Shown: positions 140 through 63,508, counted from the stretch's first letter. The stretch is DNA of 64,000 nucleotides from Flavobacteriales bacterium (GCA_018401695.1 JAGYKD010000001.1:348016-412015), one strand, 5' to 3'. Numbers and translations: made by a program. Notes: a model not told the origin generated them from the letters alone.

Positions 140-312
140 TGGGCCCTCCCATCTATAGCATTGTGCGCTCCGTGTCCTCCCTTAGCTCCGGTCGACCCTT
201 GGCCAAGCCGGAGGGGCATGGCCTGTGGTGGCTTGCTGCGCGCCGCCTCCTCGGCTGTGCCCCTCTAAGGCTTGGCATGCGGGCGGCCCTTCGCCTGGTC
301 GGGGGGCCATTC
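140..312 (+). repeat. GC-rich intergenic repeat, copy R1 (subfamily 1, diverged)
   Basis: Shares the 3' end ggggggccattcttt with R9, plus the gcatgcggg and gcctcctc blocks and a tttgggccc start. GC content is far above the flanking DNA. Confidence 0.55.
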
Positions 313-384
313 TTTTAACCGCTTGTATTCTTTAGCCATAAACTTCTATCTTTTATCTTTGTTCTGTATAAGTAACTTGGAATT

Positions 385-897
385 ATGAAACAACTTATTG
401 CATACGCTTTCATCGCAGGATTATTTTTGGCTTGTGGTCCCGGCCCATCCGTAGATATTGCTTTTGATTCCGGACCGCTCGCCATGGGTGTTGATACTCC
501 AATGACGCCCGGAATTACCACCATTCAAAGCGAGGTGGTATTGGATTTGGACGAACAGTTCGAAAAAGCCCAAGCCAAACGCGACGAAGTACAAGGCGTG
601 GACAAAGGAAGTATGGTACTTACTGCTGCTGAAGGCCGCAATTTTGACCTGTTCGAAAACCTTACCATTTCGTTTTATTCCGATGAGAACAATATGACCA
701 CCGTTGCCACCCTTAATCCGGTAGAAAAAGGGCAAAGCACCTTGGAAATCCCACTTTCGGATTTGGCCGAAATTGGTCCTTATTTCGAAGAAAATAAATT
801 CCTTATTGTCCTCGACGCGCAAATTATGGCGCCCGACACGCTTCCCTTTGAACTAAATGCTCAAATCAGCGGAACCCTTAAACCCTCAAAAAAATGA
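385..897 (+). CDS. hypothetical lipoprotein
   Basis: N-terminal signal peptide with lipobox (LFLAC). Its stop overlaps the next start by 4 nt (ATGA). No recognisable catalytic motif. Confidence 0.5.
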   Translation: MKQLIAYAFIAGLFLACGPGPSVDIAFDSGPLAMGVDTPMTPGITTIQSEVVLDLDEQFEKAQAKRDEVQGVDKGSMVLTAAEGRNFDLFENLTISFYSDENNMTTVATLNPVEKGQSTLEIPLSDLAEIGPYFEENKFLIVLDAQIMAPDTLPFELNAQISGTLKPSKK

Positions 898-1343
898 GCC
901 GACTTGCACTGCTTTGTATACTGTTCATCGGTCTTGCTCATTCTGCTGTGGCGCAAAACGATGCCGATAGAATTTTGGGCATTTGGGTTACCGGAAAAGG
1001 TAATGCAAGGGTAAAAATTGAAAAAATTGGCAACCGCTATTTTGGAAAAACCGTGTGGCTCGAAGAACCCAACGATTCGGAAACCGGAAAACCCAAAACC
1101 GATACCGAAAACCCCGACCCTAGTTTGCGCAATATGCCGCGGTTGGGACTTCGTATAATGAAAGACTTCGAATTCTCCGGAGACAACAAATGGAAAGAAG
1201 GCACCGTATACGATCCCGAAAACGGAAAAACTTACTGCGGAGCCATTACTTGGCGCGATAACAATACCATTGAACTCAGAGGCCATATTTGCGGACTTTC
1301 CTTTTTGGGTCGTAGCGATACCTGGAAACGCTATACCCCCTAA
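894..1343 (+). CDS. DUF2147 family secreted protein
   Basis: Signal peptide followed by the DUF2147 motifs GIWVTGKG...VKI...YFGK and DNPDP.LRNMP.LGL.I, then WKEGTVYDPENGKTY...LRGHICGL.FLGRSDTWKRY. Confidence 0.6.
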   Translation: MSRLALLCILFIGLAHSAVAQNDADRILGIWVTGKGNARVKIEKIGNRYFGKTVWLEEPNDSETGKPKTDTENPDPSLRNMPRLGLRIMKDFEFSGDNKWKEGTVYDPENGKTYCGAITWRDNNTIELRGHICGLSFLGRSDTWKRYTP

Positions 1344-1362
1344 AATTTCCCCCTAAGAATCA

Positions 1363-1398
1363 AACAGGACTGACAAGTTGTCAGTCCTGTTTTCGCTT
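1363..1398 (+). terminator. rho-independent terminator
   Basis: Perfect 14-bp stem AACAGGACTGACAA/TTGTCAGTCCTGTT followed by TTTCGCTTT, 20 nt after the stop of the DUF2147 gene. Confidence 0.6.
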
Positions 1399-1415
1399 TG
1401 TACCTTTGCCGGGCT

Positions 1416-2864: not shown

Positions 2865-2866
2865 GG

Positions 2867-5646: not shown

Positions 5647-5672
5647 AGCAGAGCCGCAGTTTCTCCGCTGGT

Positions 5673-9614: not shown

Positions 9615-9775
9615 GAAGCATGTATTTGGGCGCCCGGGCGCGCTCTCGCCTTATAGCTGCCCATTGGAATCTTGGCTTTGCTTATGCCGGCGGCCGGGTC
9701 CCTGCGGGCCAGGCCGGCGGCAGCAAAGCACAAGATTCCAAAAGGCAGGCTGCCGGCTCCATCGCTGGCGCAAAA
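9613..9775 (+). repeat. GC-rich intergenic repeat, copy R2 (subfamily 2, diverged)
   Basis: Begins tatttgggcgcc and carries the ctctcgcctt, gggtccc and caggctgccggctcc blocks that align with R7. Confidence 0.5.
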
Positions 9776-9805
9776 AAAACACCGAACTTAGGTAGCTCGG
9801 TGTTT
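9772..9805 (-). terminator. rho-independent terminator of the lipoprotein gene 9829..10452
   Basis: Stem AACACCGA/TCGGTGTT preceded by an 8-A run (a T-run on the minus strand), 25 nt after the stop. Confidence 0.55.
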
Positions 9806-9828: not shown

Positions 9829-10452
9829 TTAGGAGTTCTCCTTAAACGAAGCCACCATCTGTTCCAAATCAACTCCGTACCGACCTATTCTCGATTCAAG
9901 CGTCCAACCCATAATGGTATACATGGTCGATGCACCCTCTACATATCCTAACACATAATATATGCTCAAGTCGGGCACATCAGCAATGGTTCCCGTAACG
10001 GTAAAGGAAGCTCGCCTACTGCCATTACTCTCCCTATATTCCAAATCGCTGCGGTCTGCTACTGTGCTCATCATTTCCAGTAAACTTTCGGACTGGAACT
10101 GGGCGTAGTTTTCGAGTGGAGAAAGAGACGCATCGTACAAGCCTAATTCGGAAAACACTTGCATGAACTCATCTTTAGGCTCATCAATTACCACCACGTA
10201 AGTTTCTTTAACTATGTTTTGGTATTGAAGCGATGCCTCAGCGTTTAAGTCTGTAGCCTCAGACATGTATTCGGGTACATCTAAGCTGTAGTCTTTTACA
10301 CTTACTGTTTGGGTAGGAGCGGGTTCGGCGGACTCCGCTTCAAAAGTTTCTGAAAGGACATTGGACTCTTCTCCTTGCTCGGATTTAGAAGCATTGCTAC
10401 CACAAGCAAAGAACAAGGCAGCTAAGGAAACAGATAGAAAAGCAGTTTTCAT
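9829..10452 (-). CDS. hypothetical lipoprotein
   Basis: MKTAFLSVSLAALFFACGSN lipobox. The start was moved to this Met; the ORF upstream of it is open but has no signal peptide. Acidic, no known motif. Confidence 0.5.
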   Translation of the reverse strand: MKTAFLSVSLAALFFACGSNASKSEQGEESNVLSETFEAESAEPAPTQTVSVKDYSLDVPEYMSEATDLNAEASLQYQNIVKETYVVVIDEPKDEFMQVFSELGLYDASLSPLENYAQFQSESLLEMMSTVADRSDLEYRESNGSRRASFTVTGTIADVPDLSIYYVLGYVEGASTMYTIMGWTLESRIGRYGVDLEQMVASFKENS

Positions 10453-10478
10453 GCAATAGTAAAAAATGGGTAATTCAT

Positions 10479-10805
10479 TTAGGGAGCGATTGGCTGCTGG
10501 CCCATGCCTGTTTGAGACATATCCAGGTTTTCTACCGGCAATTCTTTGCCCGTTTGCTGTGCTACCGGAGCTTGGTATTGAAAAAAGAAACCACTGGCAA
10601 TGCACAATACCGCAAGGAGACCCATAAGTTGCCAAGTTCGCTTTTCTACAATTTCGGTTTCCTTGCGCGCCCCAAACATTTGGTTAGAGACCCCAACATT
10701 GGAAGCAATACCTCCGCCTTTGGCGTTTTGAATAAGCACAATGAGGATAAGCAAAATAGCAACCAACATAATGGCAGCCATGAGTAGGATTTGAGAAATG
10801 TCCAT
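10479..10805 (-). CDS. secG: preprotein translocase subunit SecG
   Basis: Two TM helices and the SecG motif LLILIVLIQNAKGGG...FG. The size and its position next to groES are typical. Confidence 0.75.
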   Translation of the reverse strand: MDISQILLMAAIMLVAILLILIVLIQNAKGGGIASNVGVSNQMFGARKETEIVEKRTWQLMGLLAVLCIASGFFFQYQAPVAQQTGKELPVENLDMSQTGMGQQPIAP

Positions 10806-12084: not shown

Positions 12085-12250
12085 AGACCGGAGCCACCTG
12101 TTGGAAGACGGCGCAGGGATGGCGTGAAAAGCCCGCAAGCAGGCAAAGCTTAGGGCTACGGCAATGAGGAGGCGACCCTAGGAGCCCCCGGAATGCCTGA
12201 AGCCCTGCTTTGGCGGCAGAGGACTTGCAACAACAGCCCGGTTGCGCCCC
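12085..12250 (-). repeat. GC-rich intergenic repeat, copy R3 (subfamily 2)
   Basis: Aligns with R8 through the ctgttggaag, agcaggc, ggagg(g/c)gacccc, caacaaca and gcgcccccaaaa blocks. Lies between convergent genes. Confidence 0.65.
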
Positions 12251-12260
12251 CAAAAACAAT

Positions 12261-13342: not shown

Positions 13343-14536
13343 TCAAGCGTCTTCGTGTAAAAACAAGTTGGGGCCTTTTCGTCCCATATCCACAGAGGAA
13401 GCACGCAGCACACTACCTTCTCCAAACCTTTGATTTACCGAATCCATGGCCTGTATGAGTCGAATCTTGGACTGGGTATCTTCGAACAAGTGGAGCTGAG
13501 GTGCGCCATAAATGAGGTCAGCAAAACGAATGCCAATAAGGCGCACGCGGAGTCGGCGGTCGTAGAGTCTAGAAAATAGAGCGGTGGTATGTGGGATGAG
13601 TTGATGATCGAATGCGCTGTAAGGAATTTTTTGCTGCATGCTGCGGGTATCGAAGTCGGCATAACGAATGCGCAGTCCGATGGATGCGGTGAGTCTTCGA
13701 CGCTTTCTTAGTCGAAAAGCCAGCTTTTCGGTAAGGGCTATGACCATACGTTTGAGCCAAAGCGGGTCGGTTTGGTCATGTTCAAAAGTGAGCTCGGTGC
13801 TGAGGGATTTTTGTTCGCGGTAGGGCATTACCGGACTAAGGTCTTGCGCATTGGCTTTTTCCCAAAGGCTACGTCCGTGATTTCCGAGCACTTGCGCTAG
13901 TAGGTCGGGAGAAGTCTCCTGCAAGGTAGCTATGCGAACCACGCCCAGTTGACGGAGCAGCTGCACGGTTTTGGGGCCAGCCATGGGCAAGCGTTCTACA
14001 GGAAGCGGTGCCAAAAAAGGGCGTTCGGCTCCCTGAGGCACCTGATGCTGCCCGTTGGGCTTGGCTTCTCCGGTGGCCACCTTAGATACCGTTTTGCAAT
14101 TGGCCAAGCCAAAGGAGAGAGGCAAATGGGTTTCGCTGATGATGCGCTGACGCAGTTCGGAGGCCCATCGGTAGCATCCGAAATAGCGATCCATGCCGGA
14201 GAGATCGGCATAAAACTCGTCAATAGAAGCCTTTTCAAAAGAAGGCACTTGGTCGGCAATAATGCCGGTAACTTCCTGAGAACATCGGGTATACAAGTCC
14301 ATATCTCCATGGAGCACCAAGGCCTCCGGGCAAAGACGTTTTGCCAAAGCCATAGGCATGGCAGAGCGAACGCCAAAGCGCCGAGCTTCGTAACTGCAGG
14401 AGGCTACTACGGCACGGCCGGATGAGCCTCCAATGATAATGGGTCGGTTGTTCAATCGAGCATCGCGGCGACGTTCGGCCGACACAAAAAAGGCATCTAA
14501 ATCCAGATGCAGGACGATGCGCTTGCTTTCTGCCAT
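13343..14536 (-). CDS. dinB: DNA polymerase IV (Y-family translesion polymerase)
   Basis: IVLHLDLDAFFVSAERRRD..., the SIDEFY/ADL motif region, and the thumb and little-finger domains. Confidence 0.85.
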   Translation of the reverse strand: MAESKRIVLHLDLDAFFVSAERRRDARLNNRPIIIGGSSGRAVVASCSYEARRFGVRSAMPMALAKRLCPEALVLHGDMDLYTRCSQEVTGIIADQVPSFEKASIDEFYADLSGMDRYFGCYRWASELRQRIISETHLPLSFGLANCKTVSKVATGEAKPNGQHQVPQGAERPFLAPLPVERLPMAGPKTVQLLRQLGVVRIATLQETSPDLLAQVLGNHGRSLWEKANAQDLSPVMPYREQKSLSTELTFEHDQTDPLWLKRMVIALTEKLAFRLRKRRRLTASIGLRIRYADFDTRSMQQKIPYSAFDHQLIPHTTALFSRLYDRRLRVRLIGIRFADLIYGAPQLHLFEDTQSKIRLIQAMDSVNQRFGEGSVLRASSVDMGRKGPNLFLHEDA

Positions 14537-15440: not shown

Positions 15441-15643
15441 AGAAAAGGCCTCAACAAAAGTTGCACATTTAACATATAAGATTAGGAGGGTATTGGTTAA
15501 AAATTCCTAACTTTAACTTAATCTGAAACGAAGTTTTGGTTTTGTTTTCTCAGGGCAAAGAAATTGCTGTCCAATGGCAGCTATCCTTATTGAAGGGAAA
15601 ATCGGCTATATTTCAGACAAAACATACATATTTAACACATCTT

Positions 15644-18600
15644 ATGTTGCGTACACTTTACCCTAGACTAAAAGCATCGAATCGTTTACGCACCGGGGCA
15701 TTTCTCGGCATAATGGCGGTATCAGGTGCTGTTTCTGCGCAGTATTGCATTCCGACTACCGATTGCAGCATTGGCGACCAAATTTCGCTTATGCAATTGT
15801 CCAATATTACCAATCCATCGGGTTGCGGTGTAGGCGGATACCAGGATTTTACATCACAGACCATCAACTTAAATGCCAACCAAGCGTATACCATGAACCT
15901 AAGCTTTGGGTTTAGTGATCAAGCGGTTGGGGTGTATGCCGATTTTAACAACGATTTTGACTTTGACGATCCCGGCGAGTTTTTGGCTGGGTTTCCACCC
16001 AACGGCACGTCCAACTTAAGTGGGTCCATTACGGTTCCTTCCACCGTACCCTCCGGAACTTACCGTATGAGGGTTCGTTGTGAGTATTTTGGGGCATTTT
16101 CTGCGGGTGGGGCATGCCTAGGATCTACGTTTACTTATGGGGAAACGGAAGACTATACCATTAGCGTGTCCAACAACCCCTGTACCTCTCCACCAACAGC
16201 AGGCACTGCAAACGGTCCTTCCCTAGCCTGTGCCAATACCAATTTTACAGTCAATGTACAGGGAAATACCTCTGGAAATGGCCAAACCTACCAATGGCAA
16301 TCCTCTCCTAACGGTACCGCTTGGAACGATATCGTAGGCCAAACCTCCCTTAATTTGACCACCAGCTTGACTGCTGCTACCCATTACCGCTGTGTGGTTA
16401 CTTGTTCCGGGCAAAGCGATACCACCAACGGCCATTTTGTGGGTCTGACTCCCAGCAATATTTGTACTATCTGCCAAACCTCTACCGCAACCAGCTCAGC
16501 CTACGGGTATATCCAAAGCTTTAACTTTAATGGGGTTATTTTCAACAGCCAAATTGGATGCCAACAATACACCAACAATACAGGTACACCAATTAATATT
16601 ATTCGAGGCCAATCGGCGAACATAATTGTTAATGTGCAGGGTTGCTCCGGAGGCAATTTTGGTCATCAGACCAAAGTATTTGTTGACCTCAACGCCAATG
16701 GTCAATTTGACCTTCCAACCGAAGAGTTTTTATTGACCCCACCCAATCCAACCGGCTATGGGTTGTATACCGGCACCGTTAGTATTCCCACTACAGCGGT
16801 TGTAGGCCCTACCATGATGCGCGTGGTAACTGTTGAGACCACTAGCCCAGCTGCCGTTACTCCATGTGGTTCTTATACCTGGGGGGAAACCGAAGACTAT
16901 ATCCTTAATATTTTGCCTTTACCCGCCAACGATGCCGGTGTGGAAACCTTTATATCGCCTTCACAAGGAGCTTGCCAAATTAGCCCCGCCGTTATTGTCC
17001 GCGTTCAAAACTTGGGCACCACCACCCTGAACTCCGTGGATGTTTCCTTATCTATAAATGGGGGCCCGGCAGCAGTGACCAACTGGACAGGAGCCATAGG
17101 AGCAGGAGGAATAGGAAACGTAAACTTGGGGCAACATACCATAAACGACGGGGATGTGTTGAAAGTATGGACTTCCAACCCCAATGGAGTGCAAGACTCG
17201 GTTTCCTTTAACGATACATTGCAAACTACCATATATGCTGCCATGCAAGGTGCCTATACGGTGGGTGGAACCACCCCGGATTTTGCTACCGTAAGCGATG
17301 CCGCACAGGCCGTAATTTCAAGAGGAGCCTGTGCCGATGTATTCCTAAACATTCGCTCGGGAACCTATACAGAATCCATTGCATTGCTGCCCTACACCGG
17401 TGCCTCAAACTCAGCCAGGGTTCATTTTCAATCTGAAGCAGGACATCCGGATTCGGTGCGCATTGAATCTCCGGGAAGCAGCCTAAGCAATTATACCTTC
17501 TGGTTCAATGGTGGCGATTATTATGTGTTAGATCAAATTACTTTGGCACATACGGTTCCCAACTTTTCTATTCTTGCAGAATTCTCCGGAGAGGCAAGCT
17601 ATAATATCATCCGCAACTCCAAACTGTTGGGTGACTCTGCCGCCTTTTCCGATGACTTCAACCGCATAGCCATTCGCAGCACCACCGACAAAGACCAGTC
17701 CAATCAACTTTTAAACAACGAAATCATCGGAGGTAGCCGGGCCATAAGTGTAGGTGGACCTAGCGACACAGACCCTGAAATGGGTTGGACCATTAGAGGA
17801 AACCACCTGCGCGGCTTCTATTTCTTAGGTATTGGTTCTTTTTACCAAATCAATCCCATAATAGAAGGAAACACCATCGAGGCCACCAGCAGCAATACCA
17901 ACACCTTTCGCATGTATGTAAATACTGCCTATAACGGTGGAAGCGTTCGCTACAATAATATTTACGGAAACTCGGCCGGCTTTGGTATAAACATCGACAA
18001 TGTTAAAGGAACCCAAAACAGTCCTTTTGTTGTTGCCAGTAACTTTGTATTTATGGGCGACTCCTCTACAGCTACCAATAATTTTGGTTTGTACGTACAA
18101 AACGGAAGCAATTTGGTGCATGTGTTGCACAACAGCCTAAGCGTGCATGGAGCAACCGCCAATACCGCTGCCATTAACGTGCAAAATGGGCCAAACGTAG
18201 ACATCGTACTGCATAACAACAATGTAGCACACTATGGAGGGGGGCGTGCCTTAAGTATAGAGTCAGGATTTAGCGTGCTGCAATCAGATGCCAACAATTT
18301 CTATGCAGCCAACAACGATGCGGTGCGTTTTGCAGGAACAGGCTATGCCAATGCGGCCGCGCTCAACAGTGCAACAGGATTAGACGCCAATTCCATGACC
18401 GTTGACCCGATGTTCCTGACCGAAGACATGCATACGTGTATGGCTGATTTTGATAACAAAGGGATGGCCATGGGCGAAACTATGGATATTGATGGCGATA
18501 CACGCAACGCAAACACTCCGGATATTGGAGCCGATGAGTTTATTCGCGAAGAAACTTTTAGCCTTGGCCCGGACACAACCATTTGCCCAGGCAATACGGT

Positions 18601-19273
18601 AGTTTTAGGAAACGAAAATATTGTGGACGGTACTTGGTTATGGAACCCAACCTTTGATACCACCGCACATATTTCTGTAAGTGCTGCAGGGGAATACAAT
18701 GTAGTTGCCGTAACCTCTTGCGGAACAGCACAAGATACCCTTGAGATTTTCCATATACCGGCTCCAACTGCCAGCTTTGATACCACCGCTAGTTTCCTTA
18801 CTTATGTATTTACCAATACTAGTGGAAACACCGGCTTGAATGGCATTAGTTATCATTGGGATTTTGGAGACGGAGACACCTCTGTATTGGAAAATCCGGT
18901 GCATATTTACAATCAGGCCGGTAGCTACACGGTAACCCTTACAGTAACCAATGCCTGTGGTACAAGCACTACCGCAACCATGACCCTCGATGTTATGCTT
19001 ACCGGATTGGATGGACTTGACCAAAACAGTTGGAATGTCTATCCTAACCCCACGGAAGGACAAACACGCGTGGACGGCTACTCAGAATTACCCGCAAACC
19101 TTCAATTGAAGCTTACCGATTTATCCGGAAGAGTAGTTTGGGAAGCCAATGTTGGCCAGGTTAAGGGAGCCTTTAGCTACGCACTTAATGTTTCTGACCT
19201 GGCTGTAGGTAGCTATATTTTGCACATGCATTTAGGTGAGAAATTGGGCGCCAAAAAACTAATCAAACAATAA
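15644..19273 (+). CDS. T9SS cargo protein: GEVED domains, Ig-like module, right-handed beta-helix repeats, PKD domain and T9SS C-terminal sorting domain
   Basis: Signal peptide. Two GETEDY (GEVED) motifs, a YQWQSSPNGTAWNDI...YRCVVTCSGQSDTT module, Asn/Gly-rich beta-helix repeats, DIDGDTRNANTPDIGADEF, a PKD domain (YHWDFGDGDTS...YTVTLTVTNACG) and a CTD ending LKLTDLSGRVVWE...GSYILHMHLGEKLGAKKLIKQ. The ORF opens at 15536. Confidence 0.8.
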   Translation: MLRTLYPRLKASNRLRTGAFLGIMAVSGAVSAQYCIPTTDCSIGDQISLMQLSNITNPSGCGVGGYQDFTSQTINLNANQAYTMNLSFGFSDQAVGVYADFNNDFDFDDPGEFLAGFPPNGTSNLSGSITVPSTVPSGTYRMRVRCEYFGAFSAGGACLGSTFTYGETEDYTISVSNNPCTSPPTAGTANGPSLACANTNFTVNVQGNTSGNGQTYQWQSSPNGTAWNDIVGQTSLNLTTSLTAATHYRCVVTCSGQSDTTNGHFVGLTPSNICTICQTSTATSSAYGYIQSFNFNGVIFNSQIGCQQYTNNTGTPINIIRGQSANIIVNVQGCSGGNFGHQTKVFVDLNANGQFDLPTEEFLLTPPNPTGYGLYTGTVSIPTTAVVGPTMMRVVTVETTSPAAVTPCGSYTWGETEDYILNILPLPANDAGVETFISPSQGACQISPAVIVRVQNLGTTTLNSVDVSLSINGGPAAVTNWTGAIGAGGIGNVNLGQHTINDGDVLKVWTSNPNGVQDSVSFNDTLQTTIYAAMQGAYTVGGTTPDFATVSDAAQAVISRGACADVFLNIRSGTYTESIALLPYTGASNSARVHFQSEAGHPDSVRIESPGSSLSNYTFWFNGGDYYVLDQITLAHTVPNFSILAEFSGEASYNIIRNSKLLGDSAAFSDDFNRIAIRSTTDKDQSNQLLNNEIIGGSRAISVGGPSDTDPEMGWTIRGNHLRGFYFLGIGSFYQINPIIEGNTIEATSSNTNTFRMYVNTAYNGGSVRYNNIYGNSAGFGINIDNVKGTQNSPFVVASNFVFMGDSSTATNNFGLYVQNGSNLVHVLHNSLSVHGATANTAAINVQNGPNVDIVLHNNNVAHYGGGRALSIESGFSVLQSDANNFYAANNDAVRFAGTGYANAAALNSATGLDANSMTVDPMFLTEDMHTCMADFDNKGMAMGETMDIDGDTRNANTPDIGADEFIREETFSLGPDTTICPGNTVVLGNENIVDGTWLWNPTFDTTAHISVSAAGEYNVVAVTSCGTAQDTLEIFHIPAPTASFDTTASFLTYVFTNTSGNTGLNGISYHWDFGDGDTSVLENPVHIYNQAGSYTVTLTVTNACGTSTTATMTLDVMLTGLDGLDQNSWNVYPNPTEGQTRVDGYSELPANLQLKLTDLSGRVVWEANVGQVKGAFSYALNVSDLAVGSYILHMHLGEKLGAKKLIKQ

Positions 19274-19368: not shown

Positions 19369-19493
19369 ACAATTCCATTTTTGATAATTTTAGTAGCTAT
19401 TTGATAGCCTTAGCTTAACACTAAAAAAGCTGAGCAATACACCTAAACACTAGTTATACTATGGTATTCAAACGTTACCCATGCAACCTCACT

Positions 19494-23216: not shown

Positions 23217-23263
23217 CCTTGGGGGCAATCTTTTTGGAAAATACGTTTTGAATGGGAAAGGTT

Positions 23264-23287
23264 AGAGACGCAAAATTTTGCGTCTCT
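23264..23287. promoter_or_regulatory. 24-nt perfect palindrome AGAGACGCAAAATTTTGCGTCTCT (copy 1)
   Basis: Perfect dyad. A second copy lies 76 nt downstream. Confidence 0.4.
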
Positions 23288-23337
23288 TCTAGAAATTACA
23301 AATCACAGGCAAAAAAGATGTTCTTCTATTTTTTTAC

Positions 23338-23361
23338 CGAGACGCAAAATTTTGCGTCTCT
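23338..23361. promoter_or_regulatory. palindrome GAGACGCAAAATTTTGCGTCTC (copy 2)
   Basis: 22 of 24 nt identical to copy 1. Sits immediately 5' of repeat R4. Confidence 0.4.
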
Positions 23362-23384
23362 ATTTCAATAAACCCCAAAGCATG

Positions 23385-23575
23385 GCCCCCCGGCCGGGCA
23401 AAGGGCCGGCCGCAGGCTTAGGCTACGGGTGGCGAGGCTGAGGATGCGTAGCTTTGCGGAGCAACCGGAAGCCCGCCAACCGAGCCTAAGCCAAGGCCGA
23501 CCGGAGCCGGGGCCGGCTAGAATACGGAATTGCTTATCGGAGCCGGGGCCCGCCTTCCATGCCTTGGCACAGGCC
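23385..23575 (-). repeat. GC-rich intergenic repeat, copy R4 (subfamily 1)
   Basis: Aligns with R10 through the atggcccccc..gccggc, ggctgaggatg, ccggagc.ggggc and tacgga...ccggggccc blocks. Confidence 0.7.
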
Positions 23576-34699: not shown

Positions 34700-34877
34700 C
34701 AAGGCACAAAACGCATGCGCCAGGGACCGGCACGGATGCCCCGGACGCCTCTAAACCCGGACGGGCCGGCTGGCGGAGGCGGTCCCGAATCATCGGGAAA
34801 GCCCACGCACAGCCCTGCCCGTCCGTGGTTTGGAGGCGCCGGAGCAGGAGGGAGGGCCCGGTTCAGGCGCCCAAAAC
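34700..34877 (-). repeat. GC-rich intergenic repeat, copy R5 (subfamily 2)
   Basis: Aligns with R8 through ggaggc.gtcccgaatcatcggga, ggagggagggcccggtt and a terminal caggcgcccaaaac. It abuts the tatC stop codon. Confidence 0.65.
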
Positions 34878-36099: not shown

Positions 36100-36310
36100 T
36101 TTGCTATGAAATTTGGGGGTTCCCCCTCGGGCCTAAGGGCACCGAGGGGGCGGGCTGTCCGTTCCAAGCCGCATGGGCAAGCCTTGCTTTTGTAAGCTTT
36201 TTGGGGGTTTTGCTAAAGCGCCAACCCCAAAAAGCAACAAAAGCAAAGCCTTGCCTGCGCGGGCTTTCCTCTGCCATCCCTAACCCAAGATCCCTATACT
36301 CTTTGAGCTT
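36100..36310. repeat. GC-rich intergenic element, a possible degenerate repeat copy (R6)
   Basis: High GC. Internal inverted repeat CCCCCTCGG...CCGAGGGGG. Only a weak match to the family end (taaagcgccaaccccaaaaag). Confidence 0.25.
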
Positions 36311-49315: not shown

Positions 49316-49482
49316 GTGGGCTTTGGGCGCCTTATCCCGCCCTCTCCTTTAGTGTTGTTGCCCAAGCCGGGCAGCCCTAAAGCCTACGGGGTCCCCTCCC
49401 GAAACTTCGGGAGGGGCCTCCGTGGCTCAAGGCCTGCCTGGCTCGGGCTTCCAACAGCTATCGGTTCGGTCGGGGGCGCATG
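49316..49482 (+). repeat. GC-rich intergenic repeat, copy R7 (subfamily 2)
   Basis: About 90% identical to the reverse complement of R8. Contains the perfect hairpin CCCTCCCGAA-AC-TTCGGGAGGG. Confidence 0.85.
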
Positions 49483-49779
49483 GTCTTCCAATGATTTATT
49501 GCAAAAGCTGTTGTGCAGCCCCCCTCAGCACAGAGCCTTTGCTCAAAAACACCTAACCTCTTTGCCTAATCTCCTTTATTTTTCTCCTCCCCAACCTCGC
49601 CATGCCAGGCACAAAAAAGGGAGCCCTAAGACTCCCTTTAGCTTGCCCGCTCCCACTGAAGCATATACTGTTCAAACCACGAATCCTATCTATAGCTTCC
49701 GGACAAACGTTTTACCCAAACGTTGGATTGCACCAAAAATTTTTCAGAACTTACCCCTTTCACCTTTTTTAACTCTGGA

Positions 49780-51912
49780 TTAGGAAGCACTTGGGGAATC
49801 AGGCATCAATAAATCCAGCACTTGAGCTGCGGCTTCAGGAATTTTGGTACCCGGACCAAACACCGCCGCTGCCCCCGCATCAAACAAAAAGCCATAATCC
49901 GCCGAAGGAATTACTCCGCCAACAATCACCAAAACATCTTGGCGCCCATAAGACTTTAAGGCCTCAATCACTTCCGGAACCAAGGTTTTGTGCCCGGCAG
50001 CCAAAGAGCTTACCCCCAAAATATGCACGTCGTTTTCTACTGCCATCCGAGCTACTTCAGCCGGAGTTTGAAATAATGGGCCTACATCCACATCAAACCC
50101 TAAATCGGCAAAAGAAGTCGCAATTACTTTAGCCCCACGGTCATGACCGTCTTGACCCATTTTGGCCACCAAAATCCGAGGCCTGCGACCTGTTTGTTCT
50201 AAAAACTGATCTACTTTAACTCTCGTGGCCTCAAAACCTGCATCTGATTTCATACCCTGGGCATATACTCCTGAAATGGTTTGAATGTGTGCTTGATACC
50301 TACCAAAAACATCTTCCAAAGCTTGAGAAATTTCACCTAAAGTAGCTCTGACCCGAGCCGCCTCCACTGCAAGTGCGAGAAGATTCTCCTTTGCTTTTGC
50401 TCCTCTACGCAAAGCATCAAGAGCTTGTTCCACTTTTTCGGAATCGCGTGCTGCCCTAAGTTGCTCAAGACGCTCTACTTGCTGATGCCGCACTTTCTGG
50501 TTGTCTACTTCAAGCAATTCCAAATCGGTCGCATCTTCTACCCGGTAGGTATTTACCCCAATCAATACTTCTTCACCACTGTCTAGTCTTGCCTGTTTGC
50601 GGGCGGCGGCCTCTTCAATTTTTAACTTGGGCAGGCCGTTCTCTATGGCTTTGGTCATTCCACCCAAGGTTTCAATCTCTTCCAAATGTACCCGGGCTCT
50701 TTCGACCAATTTTCCCGTTAAATACTCCACATGCGCCGACCCAGCCCATGGATCAATATGTTTGGTTACCCCCGACTCTTCAGAGATAATCAACTGAGTA
50801 TTTCTGGCAATGCGGGCAGAAAAATCGGTAGGCAAAGCAATGGCTTCGTCTAAACTATTGGTATGCAAAGACTGTGTCCCACCCAGCACTGCGGCCATAG
50901 CTTCCACAGCAGTTCGGGTAACGTTATTGTAGGGATCCTGTTCGGTTAAGCTGTAGCCGGAGGTCTGACAATGGGTGCGCAACATCAAAGATTTAGCACT
51001 TTTAGGACCAAAGGACTTTACCAAAGAGGCCCACAACAAGCGGGCAGCCCGTAACTTGGCAATTTCCATGTGGTGATGCATACCTATAGCAAAGAAAAAA
51101 CTTAACCTGGGGGCAAAGGCGTCTACATCTAAACCACTGGCAAGTCCGGTGCGAATATATTCCAATCCATCCGCTAAGGTGTAGGCCAATTCAATATCTG
51201 CCGGTGCTCCTGCCTCATGCATGTGGTAACCCGAAATGGAAATGGAATTAAACCGAGGCATATGCGCAGCCGTATACCCAAAAATATCCGCAATCAACCG
51301 CATGGATTCCCGGGGTGGATATATATAGGTGTTCCGAACCATAAACTCCTTCAAAATGTCGTTTTGAATGGTCCCACTTAACTGCTCCGGCTTCACTCCT
51401 TGCTCCTCTGCCGCTACAATATAAAAGGCCAGAATAGGTATAACCGCTCCATTCATGGTCATAGAAACCGACATTTTTTCCAATGGAATCTGGTCAAAAA
51501 GCAACTTCATGTCCTCAACCGAATCTATGGCTACACCGGCCTTTCCAACATCACCCACCACTCTTGGGTGATCGGAATCGTAGCCACGGTGAGTAGCCAA
51601 ATCAAAGGCGACCGAAAGCCCCTTTTGCCCCGCAGCTAAATTTCTTCTGTAAAAGGCATTGGACTCCTCTGCAGTTGAAAAACCGGCATACTGACGAATG
51701 GTCCAAGGCCGCAACACATACATTCCCGGATAAGGCCCCCGCAAAAAGGGAGCAATTCCGGGTACATAATCCAAATGGGGCATACTTTGCCAATCCTCAG
51801 CCTTAAGACCGGAAGGTATGTCTATTCCCTCCGGACTCGAAAAGCTGCGGTTGCCTCTCTTCATTTCTGAAGTTCCCGGCCCGGTAGCAAGTTTTTTATA
51901 CCTTGGTCTCAT
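49780..51912 (-). CDS. scpA: methylmalonyl-CoA mutase large (alpha) subunit with C-terminal B12-binding domain
   Basis: TIM-barrel mutase domain followed by the cobalamin-binding domain ([21 protein letters not shown]...). The start overlaps the mutA stop (ATGA). Confidence 0.9.
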
Positions 51913-55270: not shown

Positions 55271-55756
55271 AGAAGTTCCGAAGTGCCCCGATTGTTCATA
55301 AATAGCAATGAGGCGTCGCCCACTCATCATTCACCGTGCATCAACCGGAGGAAAAACATTTTGGGAGAATCGAAGCAACCCTAAAAAGAGATTTGTATAC
55401 TGGAAGAAGTCGGACTAAGGTAGGCTTATCGCTTAGCAGCCAGTTCCATCAAAAAATTTATCATGCGGAGGGCAATAGTTTCTTCATCTTGTGGCAAGTT
55501 GGGTTGCATAGGGGAAGTATAACTTCTTCTGCTTAGCTGGCTTTGATTGCTGCATGAGTCCCCTTTAAGCAAATATCCGAAAATACCAACATTTAGCCCT
55601 ACCACGACCAAGAGGGCTAAGCCCCAAAAGCACCTAAGAAACAGATTCTTTTTCATGGAAAAAATTAGGATATAAAAGTACGGATTTTTCTAATTGTAGC
55701 AAATTGGGCCTGTTAAACCTCTAAAAAGCTTAAAACAAGATGCCCATATTTGGAAG

Positions 55757-55920
55757 ATAAAGCGCCCCTGACCGAGCCGGTAGCTGTTGGAAGCCCGAGC
55801 CTAGCAGGCCTTAAGCCACGGAGGCCCCAACCTATAATCGGGAGGGGACCCCGTAGGCTTTAGAGCTGCTTGGCTTGGGCAACAACACTAAAGGGGAGGG
55901 CGGGTTAAGGCGCCCAAAAG
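55757..55920 (-). repeat. GC-rich intergenic repeat, copy R8 (subfamily 2)
   Basis: The reverse complement aligns with R7 at about 90% identity over about 165 nt. Confidence 0.85.
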
Positions 55921-58248: not shown

Positions 58249-59577
58249 CTAGTCTTGGCTCATTACCCTCAACTCCACCTCGTCGATTCGGGTGTTGCTC
58301 ACCCGAAGCATGCGCAAAACAAAGCCCGCAGCGTGAATTTCCTGGCCTTGTTGCGGCAAATCCTGATGGTGGTGCAGCACAAAACCGGCCAAGGTCTCAT
58401 ACTCTTCGCTTTCAGGAATGCCTAATTCGTACTTATCGTTTATATAATCTACTTCCAAGCGGCCCGACAAGCGGAACAGCCCTTCTCCCAATTGCACGTC
58501 CACCAGCGCTTCCTTGTCGTGTTCATCCTCAATCTCTCCAAAAATTTCTTCAATGATGTCTTCCAAGGTCAAAATGCCGGCAGTTCCACCATACTCATCA
58601 ACCACCACGGCCACGGAGCGGTGCTGCTGAATAAACAGCGTCATGATGTCTTTAACCAGCATGGTTTCCGGAACAATAAGTACGGGCAACAAAATTTCAC
58701 GAATAGACTGCGGCTTGCGGAACAAGTCGAAACTGTGCACAAAACCAATGATTTCGTCGATGCCCTCCTTGTAAATCATGATTTTGGAATGGCCGGTAGA
58801 GATAAACAAGCGCCTCAGCTCGTCCAATGGGTCTTCTACTTCCAAGGCCGCCAATTCGGTGCGTGGCACCATGCATTCACGGGCTTTAACGCTTGGAAAA
58901 TCCAGGGCATTCTTTAGAATTTTCACTTCATGCTCCACTTCAGCCTGTTCTTCTCGGGCTTCCTCAGTAATTTGGCGCAAATAATACCCCAAATCGGTCT
59001 TCTCTAAGCTTACTGCCTCTTCTTCCGTCTCTACTCTGAGTATGTATTTAAGGATGATTTTACTAACGGCCACCGTAAACGTAACGGGCAAATGGAGCAG
59101 GTAATAAAACAAAGCCATGGGCACCGCCATACTTTTTAGCATGGCGTTGGGGTTGAGGCTAAACACCGATTTGGGCACGTATTCAGCCAAAAACAAAATC
59201 AGCAAAGTAGAAATCAGGGTTTGTGCAATCAACACCGGCAGCTGCACCGAGGTCCCAAAATAACCCATCAGTCCCTGTTCCAGCAGAGGCTCCAGCCATT
59301 TGGCCATAATGAGACTGTAGAGCACCAGCGAAATATTGTTGCCAATAAGCATGGTACCAATAAACCGCGAAGGGCTTTTGGTGACCCGCCCCAGCAATCT
59401 CCCCTGCAAGGAATCGTGAATTTTATCCAACTCCAGCTTGAGCTTATTGCCGCTTACATAGGCAATTTCCACTCCCGAAAAAAAAGCGGACAAGGCAATG
59501 GAAAACAGCAAAATGAACACTTCGACGTAGGTCAACACGGTAGTCAAATAAAAAGTAAAGGTACAAAAGGAATGCAT
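58249..59577 (-). CDS. CNNM/CorC-HlyC family membrane protein (DUF21 plus CBS pair plus CorC_HlyC), possible GldE
   Basis: Four TM helices in DUF21, two CBS domains and a C-terminal transporter-associated domain. In Bacteroidota this architecture corresponds to GldE. The ORF runs upstream into repeat R9. Confidence 0.75.
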   Translation of the reverse strand: MHSFCTFTFYLTTVLTYVEVFILLFSIALSAFFSGVEIAYVSGNKLKLELDKIHDSLQGRLLGRVTKSPSRFIGTMLIGNNISLVLYSLIMAKWLEPLLEQGLMGYFGTSVQLPVLIAQTLISTLLILFLAEYVPKSVFSLNPNAMLKSMAVPMALFYYLLHLPVTFTVAVSKIILKYILRVETEEEAVSLEKTDLGYYLRQITEEAREEQAEVEHEVKILKNALDFPSVKARECMVPRTELAALEVEDPLDELRRLFISTGHSKIMIYKEGIDEIIGFVHSFDLFRKPQSIREILLPVLIVPETMLVKDIMTLFIQQHRSVAVVVDEYGGTAGILTLEDIIEEIFGEIEDEHDKEALVDVQLGEGLFRLSGRLEVDYINDKYELGIPESEEYETLAGFVLHHHQDLPQQGQEIHAAGFVLRMLRVSNTRIDEVELRVMSQD

Positions 59578-59594
59578 GTGGAGGTTAGGGGATG

Positions 59595-59795
59595 TCGGGC
59601 CCCGGCTCCGTAGAATCATGGTCTATTCTATCCGCCCCTGCGGCGGTGCGGCTTCCCCTTGCCCACGCCTGCGCAAGTCTTCCGGGGTCCCCCGTACCTT
59701 CAGGGGCCTCCTCATCCTGCGCATGCGGGGCTCGGGTTTGCCGGCCCCTCTGCCGGGCGGGGGGCCATTCTTTATGGAATTGCTAACCTACAGGC
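59595..59795 (+). repeat. GC-rich intergenic repeat, copy R9 (subfamily 1)
   Basis: Aligns block by block with the reverse complement of R10 (gggccccgg.tcc.tag; ggggtcccccg....tc.ggggcctcctca.cc; gccggcccctc..ccgggc.ggggggccat.ct.tat). Confidence 0.85.
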
Positions 59796-59826
59796 GCGGC
59801 AGTCAGAGACGGGAGGCATCCCGTCT

Positions 59827-60312
59827 CTACCTCATCATCCGCAACACCATGTCGGCCACCGCCGGACAGCAGGCGGCATTTTTGCGGGTTAAATCCAAGA
59901 CTTCTTTCATTTGAGGGTGGTCTGTGTGGGGATACTGCCTGCAAGCTTTTGGTCTGTAATCGTAAACGCTGCAATGCTTGTCTTCGCCCAAAAAGGGACA
60001 GGGAACGCTTTGCAGCACCCAATCACCCTCATCATCTACTCGCAAATACCGGGCTTCGAACTCAGCGGCTTTAAGCCCTAAATGCTTAGCCAACCGTTGA
60101 ATGTCTCGGTCGGTAAACAAAGGACCCACCTCCGAACAACATCGAGCACAGGTCAAACAGTCCATGGCTTCGAAAGTTTGGCGGTGGGCCTCGTGAAATT
60201 GCTTATTCAAGGCACCGGAAGGCTGCTTTTTGAGCGCACGAAACCAAGCGTTTACCAGCTTTTGCTGCGACTTAATGAGTTGGAGTTTGGCTTCTTGCGC
60301 GGCAGCATCCAT
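59827..60312 (-). CDS. YkgJ-family (CxxCxxCC) putative Fe-S/zinc-binding protein
   Basis: CLTCARCCSEVGP and a later CPFLGEDKHCSVYDYRPKACRQYP. The start overlaps the upstream stop (TGATG). Confidence 0.6.
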   Translation of the reverse strand: MDAAAQEAKLQLIKSQQKLVNAWFRALKKQPSGALNKQFHEAHRQTFEAMDCLTCARCCSEVGPLFTDRDIQRLAKHLGLKAAEFEARYLRVDDEGDWVLQSVPCPFLGEDKHCSVYDYRPKACRQYPHTDHPQMKEVLDLTRKNAACCPAVADMVLRMMR

Positions 60313-61169: not shown

Positions 61170-61305
61170 AACTAAGAAATAGGATGTTTATTTAAACAAA
61201 ATTAGTGGCAATTTTACTCATTACCCAATCTGGTCTTATTTTCGTAAATTCCTATAAATCTTGGGGTTTAGGGCACAAGAAACAAAGCCTTACCTTTATA
61301 CATGC

Positions 61306-61758
61306 ATGCATTGGCTAAAAACACAAGCAGAAAAATCAAACCATAAAGCAGCTCAGGACCACTGTCCTTTAGTGGTGTACGATGGCGTTTGTCGATTTTG
61401 CAACGGCTCCGTGCAATGGCTATTAAAGCGTTCCGGAGGAAAAACACTTCGGTTTATGGCTTGGCAAAGTAGCCACAGGTTAAGCTATATGCCCTTTAGC
61501 AAAAAGGAAGAAAGTCCGGAGAGCTTATGGGTTTTGAGTTCCGGGGGACAAAGCTACCGAGGCTCGGAAGCGGCACTCAAACTTGCTGAAATTTTAGGAT
61601 TTCCCTGGCATGTGCTGGCCTTTCCTGCCCGGCTTCTTCCGGTTCCTGCCAGGCAGTGGTTGTATCATCAGTTGGCAGCAAGGCGCTACCGCTTGTTTGG
61701 GAAGCATGCATCCTGTCCCATGCCTTCTCCTGAAGTACGCAAAAAATTCATCTTATGA
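61306..61758 (+). CDS. thiol-disulfide oxidoreductase DCC family protein (DUF393)
   Basis: The signature VVYDGVCRFCNGSVQWLLKR (DGxCxxC). The ORF opens at 61261. Confidence 0.7.
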   Translation: MHWLKTQAEKSNHKAAQDHCPLVVYDGVCRFCNGSVQWLLKRSGGKTLRFMAWQSSHRLSYMPFSKKEESPESLWVLSSGGQSYRGSEAALKLAEILGFPWHVLAFPARLLPVPARQWLYHQLAARRYRLFGKHASCPMPSPEVRKKFIL

Positions 61759-62369
61759 GCAAAAAAGCAGCTTGGATCCTAGCCGCCCTTTTGATTTTTG
61801 CGGCAGGTTTTGGAACCGCCTGGTGGCTAAAACCGGGACCCAAAGTATACCTGGCTCCACCCGAAGGCATGCCTCAGTATTCCCATGATTTAATTTTAGG
61901 CAACCCAAAGGCTCCCAGGCTTGGCTTATACCTAAGTTATCGGTGCCCTTATTGCGAAGCGTTTTACCAGGAGTGTTGGGAGGAATTGTTAAGCGATTAT
62001 GTAGAACGGCAAAAACTTTGCTTGGTATTGCGCTTGATTCCGGGAGCGGGTAGTCCCCATGAACTGCAAGCGGCGCGCTATCTTCAATGCCTTTCCCCGG
62101 AGCATTTGCCCCAAGCCCATACCGCTTTGCAGGAATGGAAGAGCCGCGACAGCCTATGGCCGGAGGAAGCCCTGGCGAACTTTCAAAGTCCGGAGCTAAA
62201 GGCATGCATAGAAAAAGATGCGGTGCGTCGTTCGGTTTTAGCGGCCCAAATTCAAGCCGAAGAAGACGGCATACACCTCACGCCCGCCTTTTGGTTTCCG
62301 AATAAAGTGGTGATGGGCTACGAAGGCAAAAAGGCCTTTTTTGAGCGGGTGAGGGAAATGGTGGAATAG
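61755..62369 (+). CDS. membrane-anchored thioredoxin-fold (DsbA-like) protein
   Basis: N-terminal TM helix, then the thioredoxin-like active site YRCPYCEAF. Translationally coupled to the DCC gene by a 4-nt overlap. Confidence 0.55.
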   Translation: MSKKAAWILAALLIFAAGFGTAWWLKPGPKVYLAPPEGMPQYSHDLILGNPKAPRLGLYLSYRCPYCEAFYQECWEELLSDYVERQKLCLVLRLIPGAGSPHELQAARYLQCLSPEHLPQAHTALQEWKSRDSLWPEEALANFQSPELKACIEKDAVRRSVLAAQIQAEEDGIHLTPAFWFPNKVVMGYEGKKAFFERVREMVE

Positions 62370-63275
62370 TTACTCCATCCCAAACCCCACCCGAAAAGCG
62401 CCACGCACTTGATTGACCTCATAGCCGGTGGCTTGGTCCCCCGGATATAGCTCGGCAATCCTAGCCGACACCTCCGGGCCGGGAATTCCATGGCAGGCCA
62501 TGCACTTTTCTTCGGTAAGTATGGGATAGTAACCCAACACCCGGTTTCCGCGCACCTGCAATTCGGCCGATATTTCTTTTCCCTCGGCGTGGCGGGCTTT
62601 CCAGGCCTCCAAAAGCATGCGCTCTCTTTCGTCGGCTGCATTTAAAGGATTTCGGGGTTTATCGCTTATGCGCCGCACTTCTACTCCTTCGGCTTGGGCT
62701 ACGCTATCGGTAATGGGAAGGGCATGCAGGGTACAAAATTCAATGGCATGCAAGGGGCCACCTTCCTTCATTTTGGCCATCAAGCGTTTGCCTAGAGCGG
62801 CCTTTGTGGCTAAGGCAATGCGTCGGCCTTCTTCCAATCGATCGGTTTTGGAAGCCGTCGCCTCAGACAAAGCCAAAGCTTCGTTTGCCGAATGCTCAAA
62901 CAGCCACTCCGCCACCTCCACTTGTTGTTGCTTGCTGTATCCCATGGCAGGCATAAGGCCGTAAGCCTCTACGGCCTCCGGCATTTTGCTTTTTTCTGCA
63001 CTAGGCTTGGCTAAAAAGTCGGCCATATGCTGCACAAAAGCTTCCTGGTCCGAATAAGCGGTTAACCAAGCCCGGCGCACTTCCTCCAATCGGGGAGCCA
63101 CGCCGGTCGACTCTTCTTCCAAACCATGGCAGGTGGCACAGTTGCTTTGCACCAAAAGCCCACCGGAAGAAGGAGTTGCAGCATCTACCGGGTTAGGCTT
63201 AGAGGAAGTACCCGATGAGCAGGCCCCTAAGCTAAGCGCAAAAACAGAGACAAAAAATAGCTTCATGTGGTTCAT
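62370..63275 (-). CDS. c-type cytochrome lipoprotein with two CxxCH heme-binding motifs (DUF3365-like)
   Basis: Lipobox LSLGACSSG. Heme motifs CATCHG and CMACHG. Confidence 0.7.
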   Translation of the reverse strand: MNHMKLFFVSVFALSLGACSSGTSSKPNPVDAATPSSGGLLVQSNCATCHGLEEESTGVAPRLEEVRRAWLTAYSDQEAFVQHMADFLAKPSAEKSKMPEAVEAYGLMPAMGYSKQQQVEVAEWLFEHSANEALALSEATASKTDRLEEGRRIALATKAALGKRLMAKMKEGGPLHAIEFCTLHALPITDSVAQAEGVEVRRISDKPRNPLNAADERERMLLEAWKARHAEGKEISAELQVRGNRVLGYYPILTEEKCMACHGIPGPEVSARIAELYPGDQATGYEVNQVRGAFRVGFGME

Positions 63276-63309
63276 AGTTCAAAGCTAGGCATCTCTCCGT
63301 TTTGGGACT

Positions 63310-63508
63310 ATGACTTTTGTCACTGATGCTATAGAGGATGGCCCCCCTGCCCGGTGGAGGGGCCGGCGCAGCCAAAGGCCGCGGAGGCCGGCTGAGGAGG
63401 CCCCCGAGCATTCGGGGGACCCCGCAAGCCATGCCTTCCGCGTGCCTTAGGGGGCGACGCACCGGAGCAGGGGCAGGATACGGAGGAACAAACACCCTAT
63501 GGAACCGG
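63310..63508 (-). repeat. GC-rich intergenic repeat, copy R10 (subfamily 1)
   Basis: The reverse complement aligns with R9. Contains the hairpin CCCCCGAA-TGC-TCGGGGG at the position of the R7 hairpin. Confidence 0.85.

Follow-up and report, generated by a model that had tools for sequence, protein, structure and literature searches.

What is the G+C-rich element that recurs between the genes of an uncultured Flavobacteriales genome, and what has kept it there? The question is raised by a stretch of 64,000 nt of Flavobacteriales bacterium (GCA_018401695.1, JAGYKD010000001.1:348016-412015; hereafter the window), for which an original prediction had proposed a dense family of intergenic repeats with two subfamilies, nine listed elements and a doubtful tenth at 36100-36310. 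We followed up these elements, named R1 to R10 along the window. The family looks like an old, fixed, interspersed intergenic hairpin repeat of uncultured Bacteroidia that is apparently undescribed. Its copies are old, vertically inherited and fixed at orthologous sites, and they are under purifying and compensatory selection, because orthologous sites are occupied, the elements are more conserved than neutral sites and the paralogues are divergent.

Ten copies of one family in the window

The window has a G+C content of 48.1%, compared with 60-70% for the nine listed elements and 54.5% for the doubtful tenth as originally delimited. A sliding 120-nt scan (mean 48%, standard deviation 5.7%, island threshold 63%) returned islands at exactly the nine listed sites and at one intragenic stretch (13934-14083). 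Gapless repeat detection linked R7 to R8 (81 nt at 94% and 79 nt at 89%), R9 to R10 (92 nt at 74%) and R1 to R4 (72 nt at 75%), and it also linked the 3' ends of R1 and R9. Once turned to a shared orientation (R1+, R9+, R4-, R10-, R7+, R8-, R2+, R3-, R5-), all nine elements are alignable. The central core described for both subfamilies stood in part: its exact form, GGGGTCCCC-N4-24-GGGGCCTCC, has four matches against 0 expected, only in R7-R10, and it is degenerate in the other copies. The hexamer ctcggg, named as part of this core, is not a general feature. The end motifs of the two subfamilies, here called type A and type B, are as they had been described.

We then built a covariance model (named R1, not to be confused with element R1; 160 positions, 61 pairs) from a seed of 14 type-A copies: R7, R8 and 12 from other genomes. 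RNAalifold gave no useful consensus on plain MAFFT alignments because the variable stems misalign; the consensus fold was built by projecting base-pair probabilities onto the alignment, followed by Infernal refinement. Matches of the model to window members have E values from 1e-31 to 1e-6. A type-B profile (nhmmer) built without R1 and R4 recovered both at full length and gave weak matches to R7, R8 and R5 as well, which ties the two subfamilies together. No further match to either the covariance model or the type-B profile was found in the window, for a total of 10 copies in 64 kb. The ten copies are one family, with elements of 155-200 nt, and the doubtful tenth is a real member. All ten fold better than dinucleotide-shuffled sequences (z -2.0 to -7.6).

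The copies are listed below with their scores under the covariance model (in bits) or the type-B profile, folding z-scores, neighbours and orthologues. The orthologues lie in syntenic loci that were reached via the PpiD-like and GroEL proteins of the window: L119 and L171 of the metagenome-assembled genome (MAG) JAUHWY, and L121 and L122, a scaffold identical in content to CAZJFM.

R1, 135..318, plus strand: type B with a degenerate apex; type-B profile E 3e-7; z -2.7; between the stop of a recX-like gene (~116) and a gene starting at 385; orthologue L171:18733-18891.
R2, 9623..9778, plus strand: type A without the apex box; 47.7 bits, E 3e-10; z -5.6; flanked by the start of groES and the terminator of the gene 9829..10635; orthologue L171:9267-9422.
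R3, 12103..12255, minus strand: type A; 73.5 bits; z -2.0; between convergent genes, an HMA-domain gene (stop 12064) and an epimerase gene (stop 12261); orthologue L171:6675-6837 (78.6 bits).
R4, 23368..23560, minus strand: type B with a degenerate apex, 75% complementary to R1 over 72 nt; type-B profile E 1.3e-13; z -3.4; downstream of the gene for the second large type IX secretion system (T9SS) protein and its small hairpins, 60-odd nt before a gene starting at 23623.
R5, 34710..34877, minus strand: type A; 68 bits, E 1e-15; z -7.6; begins 1-2 nt past the tatC stop codon (34879; Pfam TatC for 34879-35673).
R6, 36141..36293, plus strand: degenerate type A, 56% G+C; 36.9 bits, E 2e-7, over the full model length; z -3.8.
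R7, 49320..49503, plus strand: canonical type A with the 3' tail ...TCTTCCAAT; 127 bits; minimum free energy (MFE) -107 kcal/mol, z -8.5; orthologues L119:18771-18937 and L121:18352-18518, whose apical stems differ by compensatory changes.
R8, 55738..55920, minus strand: type A, an old paralogue of R7 (85-90% identity) with which it forms inverted repeats; 120 bits; directly after the canonical terminator (55950-55929) of a ppiD-like gene; orthologues L119:12179-12344 and L121:12179-12345.
R9, 59591..59788, plus strand: type B whose 5' arm carries an additional side hairpin (TAGAAT..ATTCTA) and whose end is GGGGGGCCATTCTTT; a seed member of the type-B profile, nhmmer E 1e-49; 34.7 bits; orthologues L119:8333-8475 and L121:8328-8484.
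R10, 63321..63519, minus strand: type B; nhmmer E 3e-48 (seed member); 46.8 bits, a partial match covering the upper part; ~45 nt upstream of a cytochrome-c-like gene (62370..63275); orthologues L119:3941-4100 and L121:4417-4502, adjoined by the same cytochrome gene and by a different neighbour on the other side.

Orientation does not alternate strictly along the window, as had been suggested, but runs + + - - - + + - + - from R1 to R10 (5 plus, 5 minus).

A conserved hairpin with a private stem

Each copy is one long imperfect hairpin. We described its anatomy from 63 copies, taken from several Bacteroidia MAGs and from metagenomes and aligned to the covariance model; an earlier set of 34 copies was also scored. 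The consensus of the 5' half reads tttttg GGcGcc .. tCcgGC .. T .. nU-AGUCC-UC, variable stem, cUA .. CGG-GG-U-CC-CC, and that of the 3' half reads loop beginning AA, GG-GG-CC-U-CC, variable stem, gGCU-an-CCn .. uC..uC-cggGgCgC. From base to top the hairpin thus consists of a T-rich leader (45-78% T in the 13 nt ahead of the basal helix), a basal G/C helix, a second helix, an AGUCC/GGGCU helix whose U:G wobble is kept in 45 of the 63 copies, a middle stem of 21-23 bp, and the apex. The sequence of the middle stem is private to each copy, with all four Watson-Crick pair types at nearly every position among the 63 copies, and its pairing is always kept. The apex box, GGGG-U-CCCC[loop]GGGG-CC-U-CC, has almost invariant G:C pairs and two single-U bulges. 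Past the basal helix, positions 5-8 of the tail are pyrimidine-rich (G only 1-9%), often TCTTCCAA.

The two types differ mainly in their lower parts. Type A is 153-168 nt long. Type B (R1, R4, R9, R10 and relatives) has the base GGGCCCC, the end GGGGGGCCAU(U/C)CU and an extra segment of ~28 nt in the 5' arm, which folds into a small side hairpin with covariation of its own (TAGAAT/ATTCTA in R9, AGGG/CCU in R10). The conserved type-B end, GGGGGGCC-AUUCUUU, was called terminator-like by a simple scan. Taken by itself, the 3' arm of type B can also form an alternative local hairpin, GGCCCC-N10-12-GGGGCC, followed by AUUCUUU (59743-59766, plus strand, in R9, and likewise in R1, R4 and R10). The elements are richer in G+C than their host wherever they were found, for example with a G+C fraction of 0.75 where the locus has 0.61, and of 0.79 where it has 0.58.

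The hairpin is maintained by compensatory change. Across the 63 model-aligned copies, 83.5% of pair cells hold standard pairs, compared with 55.6 +/- 0.6% after shuffling and 38-53% when partners were slid by 1-3 columns. Changes on both sides were found for 60 of the 61 pairs, and the covariation score was 0.585 against 0.157. The original prediction had noted apical stems of different sequence in R7 and R10, which is correct, and had taken them as a hint of selection on structure. This selection is much stronger than could be seen from the window: even within a single site, the apical stem of R7 reads CCUCCCG/CGGGAGG, CCACCCG/UGGGUGG and CCAUCCG/CGGAUGG in three genomes aligned with plain MAFFT.

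Relatives and the occupancy of orthologous sites

A pattern scan of species-representative genomes yielded at least 116 stretches; the pattern was loose and most of these are high-GC chance matches (Streptomyces and others). Among the matches listed, many loci belonged to two MAGs, JAUHWY01 ('Bacteroidia bacterium 2_bin.4') and CAZJFM01, and further Bacteroidota MAGs contributed single loci. A stricter pattern returned 21 stretches of metagenome contigs, in which the covariance model found 19 copies of the element. The observed density is one copy per 5.5-8.6 kb, about one per 6 kb. In more distantly related genomes (GroEL 89-90%), stretches of 21.6 kb contain 2-3 copies, which occupy other sites.

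In the sister genome JAUHWY, an orthologous element was present at all seven testable window sites (R1, R2, R3, R7, R8, R9, R10), and in L121 at four of four. Orthologous elements are 0.85-0.95 identical across the three genomes and the remainder of the same spacers is 0.61-0.83 identical, the element being the more conserved part in eight of nine comparisons. Four-fold degenerate sites of eight flanking genes are 0.54-0.78 identical between the window and its relatives, and 76-92% between the two relatives. The 5' edge of conservation is sharp at TTTGGG in the orthologue alignments.

Paralogues within a genome are far more divergent, with a median identity of 0.37-0.48. Only the R7/R8 pair exceeds 0.63 in each genome (0.85-0.90), and this pair is already present in all three genomes; among 190 pairs of JAUHWY copies, none exceeded 0.63 except the R7/R8 orthologues. 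R7 and R8 are inverted near-copies that bracket a block of 6.3 kb with genes for two methylmalonyl-CoA mutase subunits, a DUF4199 protein, a photolyase and a small open reading frame (ORF), and the arrangement is the same in all three genomes.

We looked for traces of mobility. Target-site duplications are absent: in 60 copies, the longest word shared by the two flanks averaged 5.4 nt, compared with 5.29 +/- 0.11 nt in mismatched flanks. A distant blastn search with R7 against PLSDB plasmids gave no match, a scan of IMG/VR for the core pattern gave 26 stretches with no full-length element, and model hits in the available loci included no half-elements flanking a gene. The family was probably seeded long ago by the copying of a hairpin element without target duplication.

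Two observations concern the sequence resources themselves. The genome GCA_964545365.1 (CAZJFM01; L122/L031, L075, L084, L089, L107) is labelled 'Candidatus Competibacteraceae', a gammaproteobacterial name; its contigs have ~48-50% G+C and synteny with the window, and its PpiD-like protein is 96% identical to that of the window. Judging from these sequences, the bin looks mislabelled or mixed. In addition, several Logan short-read contigs of this organism and its relatives stop inside or beside elements (the 3' end of L118, equivalent to ~55.9 kb of the window, the 3' end of L123 and the 5' end of L120), where covariance-model matches are truncated, and the hairpin repeats therefore appear to break assemblies.

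Gene context and strand

All copies lie in spacers, as had been proposed; the only overlaps are with mechanically called ORFs and with one doubtful start codon, where R9 meets the gene 58249..59619. This CNNM gene overlaps R9 in its 456-aa version; in L121, its orthologue is called with a length of 429 aa. Elements in the window also give rise to spurious ORFs of 112-155 aa (49316-49783, plus; 59576-59914, plus; 63232-63582, minus), and in L121 a called 258-aa 'gene' (L121:3809-4585) spans the R10 orthologue.

The neighbours are housekeeping genes such as groEL, ppiD-like, tatC and 2-oxoglutarate dehydrogenase. Many copies lie within 10 nt of a stop codon, on either side, or just past a canonical terminator. 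According to crude ORF calls, 6 copies are in sense-tandem, 10 in antisense-tandem, 9 in convergent and 8 in divergent contexts. R2, R4, R7 and R9 lie antisense to both neighbours. Orientation relative to the flanking genes is random, the 5' side of the element facing a gene stop in 15 of 34 scored copies, which does not support a simple terminator. Close pairs of copies (<1.5 kb apart) were plus then minus, that is tail-to-tail, in five of five cases (L089:1270-1731, L016:392-847, L168:437-780, L174:17239-17592, L158:421-1380), with gaps of 28-643 nt and dissimilar stems.

No conserved promoter accompanies the element. The Bacteroidetes motif TAnnTTTG was found ahead of only 4 of 60 copies, no other conserved upstream motif was detected, and ahead of the TTTGGG boundary the orthologous sequences show no conservation. 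The two strands fold alike (mean -90.4 vs -91.4 kcal/mol), whereas the covariance model distinguishes them clearly, with 134.7 bits for the forward strand vs 29.4 for the reverse. An MFE-based count of wobble pairs favoured the forward strand (94 vs 44). In the fixed pair set without the conserved U:G, however, G:U and A:C cells were equal overall (85 vs 95). The MFE-based excess is due to the conserved U:G alone and therefore provides no evidence for a single transcribed strand.

Possible modes of action

We tentatively favor, with somewhat less than even confidence, the view that the family is a fixed hairpin module that works on single-stranded nucleic acid, most likely read-through RNA, and is recognised by one protein. 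The hairpin would act on read-through transcripts of the neighbouring genes, in whichever direction these run; there, a structure of -67 to -111 kcal/mol (predicted) could mark, protect or insulate transcript ends. Several strand-specific features are nearly invariant: the apex box with its two U bulges, the U:G wobble and pyrimidine-rich loops. These asymmetric conserved boxes may be the docking site of one dedicated protein, and candidates for this partner include a nuclease, a binding protein or an enzyme that once mobilised the element. The structure, its selection and its fixation are what the alignments document; from them we infer the acting strand and molecule, and the putative partner. 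It is also possible, if rather doubtful, that each genome contains several hundred strand-specific binding modules for one putative protein or ribonucleoprotein, which would amount to a new genome-wide cis-element system or a new, massively multi-copy class of structured RNA, and the elements would be neither relics nor generic hairpins. The private stems of 21-23 bp, lying between the invariant apex and the conserved base, would then be constrained in length and pairing alone.

Several points weigh against read-through RNA as the acting molecule, or temper the patterns behind it. Action at the RNA level is proposed from sequence, and a stable hairpin by itself leaves the invariant asymmetric apex and the U:G wobble unexplained unless a partner protein is invoked, for which no candidate was found. 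Canonical terminators stand beside several copies (R2, R4, R8), and a terminator role would therefore be redundant at best. Read in reverse, the hairpin precedes a run of A and not of U, and some copies are in divergent (promoter) spacers, based on the crude ORF calls. Wobbles lean towards the strand transcribed from the neighbours (G:U vs A:C of 11:8 in sense copies and 16:25 in antisense copies), a weak and non-significant trend that includes non-independent orthologues. In the ninth spacer comparison (IG_R9, L119 vs L121), the 85-nt remainder of the spacer is 0.99 identical vs 0.945 for the element, contrary to the pattern of the other eight. Finally, the covariation counts come from model-fitted alignments, which lean towards the model; conservation of the structure is also indicated by three independent results, the per-sequence z-scores, the large gap between forward and reverse scores and the compensatory changes in plain MAFFT alignments of orthologues.

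The main rival places the action on DNA, which we consider rather unlikely. The family would be an element similar to repetitive extragenic palindromes (REPs) and their composites, bacterial interspersed mosaic elements (BIMEs), or to REPINs; the forward-strand DNA hairpin or an extruded cruciform would be bound or cleaved by a protein, and the copies would be kept for their use by the host in chromosome organisation. Its putative partner would be a domesticated enzyme of single-stranded DNA, such as a RAYT-like HUH transposase, or a nucleoid or topology protein. The independence of orientation from transcription, the equal folding of both strands and the lack of an upstream promoter motif are all consistent with this proposal. 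The lack of target-site duplication is as expected from HUH-type mobility, and strand-specific boxes with a fixed T:G wobble fit recognition of one strand by a protein. The elements are G+C-rich, extragenic and dense like REPs, and the five tail-to-tail pairs recall the alternating REPs of BIMEs. However, the unit is 4-8 times the length of a REP and lacks a conserved GTAG/CGTC tag, and there is no cluster around a master sequence, as the low median identity of paralogues indicates. The mixed orientation within 64 kb argues against a role in single-stranded DNA specific to the lagging strand, and no RAYT-like gene was noticed in ~0.4 Mb of related DNA, although no search aimed at RAYT was made. 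Long GC-rich imperfect palindromes are also poor at cruciform extrusion, which counts against this rival.

We regard as improbable that the copies form a very large family of independently transcribed structured RNAs of ~160-200 nt, with the forward strand as the gene and the pyrimidine/U-rich tail as its terminator. Such a family would account for the covariation, which is typical of functional RNAs, for the conservation of each copy in place, for the terminator-like score of the type-B end and for the features specific to the forward strand (U:G wobble, two bulged U in the apex, C/U-rich loops including CCUCC). A small structured RNA had been suggested originally; the absence of a conserved promoter, with orthologues unconserved upstream to TTTGGG, gives no support to a small RNA gene with its own promoter. 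Moreover, the basal helix begins right at the T-run, G:U is not favored over A:C in the variable stems, and no relative was found in Rfam. A genome with hundreds of paralogous RNA genes would, to our knowledge, be without precedent, which counts against this rival too.

A non-autonomous mobile element was a further suggestion of the original prediction. [quoted passage not shown] It is an interspersed multi-copy palindrome confined to spacers, R7/R8 is one old duplicate pair, and R6 resembles a decaying copy by its G+C content and score. This explanation is very improbable and, for the present day, largely refuted: target sites are not duplicated, no site is empty among the seven orthologous ones, the pairs of JAUHWY copies include none above 0.63 identity apart from the R7/R8 orthologues, change in the fixed copies is slower than at four-fold sites and includes compensatory substitutions, and phage contigs (IMG/VR) and plasmids (PLSDB) yielded no copy of full length. 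Lastly, high G+C inflates random pairing and quasi-palindrome correction could generate double changes, but a chance likeness of low-complexity spacers, or arm-to-arm templated repair without selection, is scarcely credible and is refuted by the shuffle, slide and conservation controls: E values go as low as 1e-31 to 1e-37 and the element is matched over its full length in other genomes and in metagenomes, pairing in both controls is below that observed, the bulges, internal loops and wobble that templated correction would erase are fixed in position, and the sequence is conserved above the neutral level.

Other sequences in the window

A second, unrelated small hairpin repeat, (T)AGAGACG-N6-10-CGTCTCT(A), was found three times in the window against 0.2 expected:

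23263-23301: small hairpin repeat, beside R4.
23324-23362: small hairpin repeat, beside R4.
59796-59835: small hairpin repeat, beside R9.

The JAUHWY site orthologous to the copy beside R9 (L119:7640-8300) has a tandem array of ~16 units of ~41 nt (cagtaaagacggaatgccttccgtctctaataacg); no such array is present at this site in the window or in L121. The window also encodes three very large secreted proteins with PKD domains and type-IX-secretion C-terminal sorting domains (15536-19273, plus; 19461-23165, plus; 37984-44421, minus). The first two are tandem paralogues with GEVED domains that share a stretch of 82 nt at 73%.

Implications

The host is a freshwater-type Bacteroidia lineage known only from metagenomes. 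By extrapolation of the observed density to an assumed genome size of several Mb, there would be hundreds of these hairpins, taking up a few percent of the genome. Selection preserves both the position and the shape of every copy that we examined, a combination that is unusual for bacterial repeats. Families of REP, REPIN and MITE elements are identified through their sequence identity, the present family mainly through its structure and two small boxes, and ordinary repeat finders therefore miss it. If a protein partner exists, it would represent an unexplored system of nucleic-acid recognition, and if the hairpin does act at the RNA level, it would show how these Bacteroidia delimit their transcripts. 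The elements also yield spurious ORFs and false N-terminal extensions; together with the breaks in assemblies, this means that a covariance model would improve the annotation of these MAGs.

Comparison with known systems

With Rfam 15, the whole window gave no match at gathering scores, and permissive searches with R7 and R10 (E<=10) gave only chance matches to microRNA hairpins, the best at 31 bits vs 200 bits for gathering; the family is thus not a known Rfam family, in agreement with the original prediction. In the literature we found no description of such a Bacteroidota repeat, a prior description in the preprint 10.64898/2026.09.22.753630 (genome-language-model mining of non-coding elements) not being excluded. 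Because its orthologous sites are filled, its paralogues divergent and its orientation random, and because there is neither target duplication nor a full-length match in Rfam, plasmids or IMG/VR, the family is neither an active MITE nor a classical REP.

Some known systems resemble the family in single aspects. Rfam multi-copy motifs such as HEARO/omega RNA and other IS605-associated motifs share its many copies per genome and strong covariation; in contrast to these multi-helix scaffolds, it forms a simple rod, and no nuclease or transposase gene adjoins the copies. Integron attC sites likewise keep structure while stem sequence is free, have fixed extra-helical bases and are recognised strand-specifically as a folded strand. 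However, the attC R/L box GTTRRRY is absent from the family consensus, which ends tttttgGGcGcc...cggGgCgC, and the copies stand next to housekeeping genes and not in cassette arrays, with no integrase seen; we rejected attC for the lack of R/L boxes and of a cassette context. MITEs such as Correia in Neisseria, Nezha in cyanobacteria and RPE in Rickettsia are similar in size range, inverted repeats, intergenic location and possible RNA hairpins. Unlike MITEs, the family shows no target-site duplication, insertion polymorphism or recent copies, and it has undergone compensatory and purifying evolution in place.

The likeness to REP/BIME elements is greater. These are also GC-rich extragenic palindromes of high density and mixed orientation, with close pairs inverted, no target duplication, vertical persistence and hairpin irregularities that may serve protein recognition. 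REP units are 20-40 nt long and carry a GTAG or CGTC tag (PMC3733652). The classical REP, which had been offered as a possible analogue, was rejected: the unit here is 155-200 nt and has no such tag, and the copies have no master sequence. At neither foot does the consensus of the 63 copies show a conserved tag, and its internal nUAGUCC holds GTAG only in a minority of them. REPINs form tight sequence populations, whereas the median identity of paralogues here is ~0.4. No transposase was found among ten Pfam-scanned window genes (of ~45) or among further window genes with precomputed Pfam matches.

In behaviour, the family is closest to the enterobacterial repetitive intergenic consensus (ERIC, or IRU), imperfect palindromes of ~127 bp to which RU-2 and YPAL are related. 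Like the family, ERIC is a one-hairpin palindrome found in spacers in either orientation; it is fixed at orthologous sites and exceeds the spacer around it in conservation. We know of no transposase for ERIC or for this family, and hairpin roles at the RNA level have been proposed for ERIC. The consensus of the family is presumably unlike that of ERIC. Copies of ERIC have a single consensus in common; in this family the copies share only the boxes, and each has a main stem of its own. The family is also longer, much denser and strongly enriched in G+C relative to its genome, and it has two architectures and belongs to another phylum.

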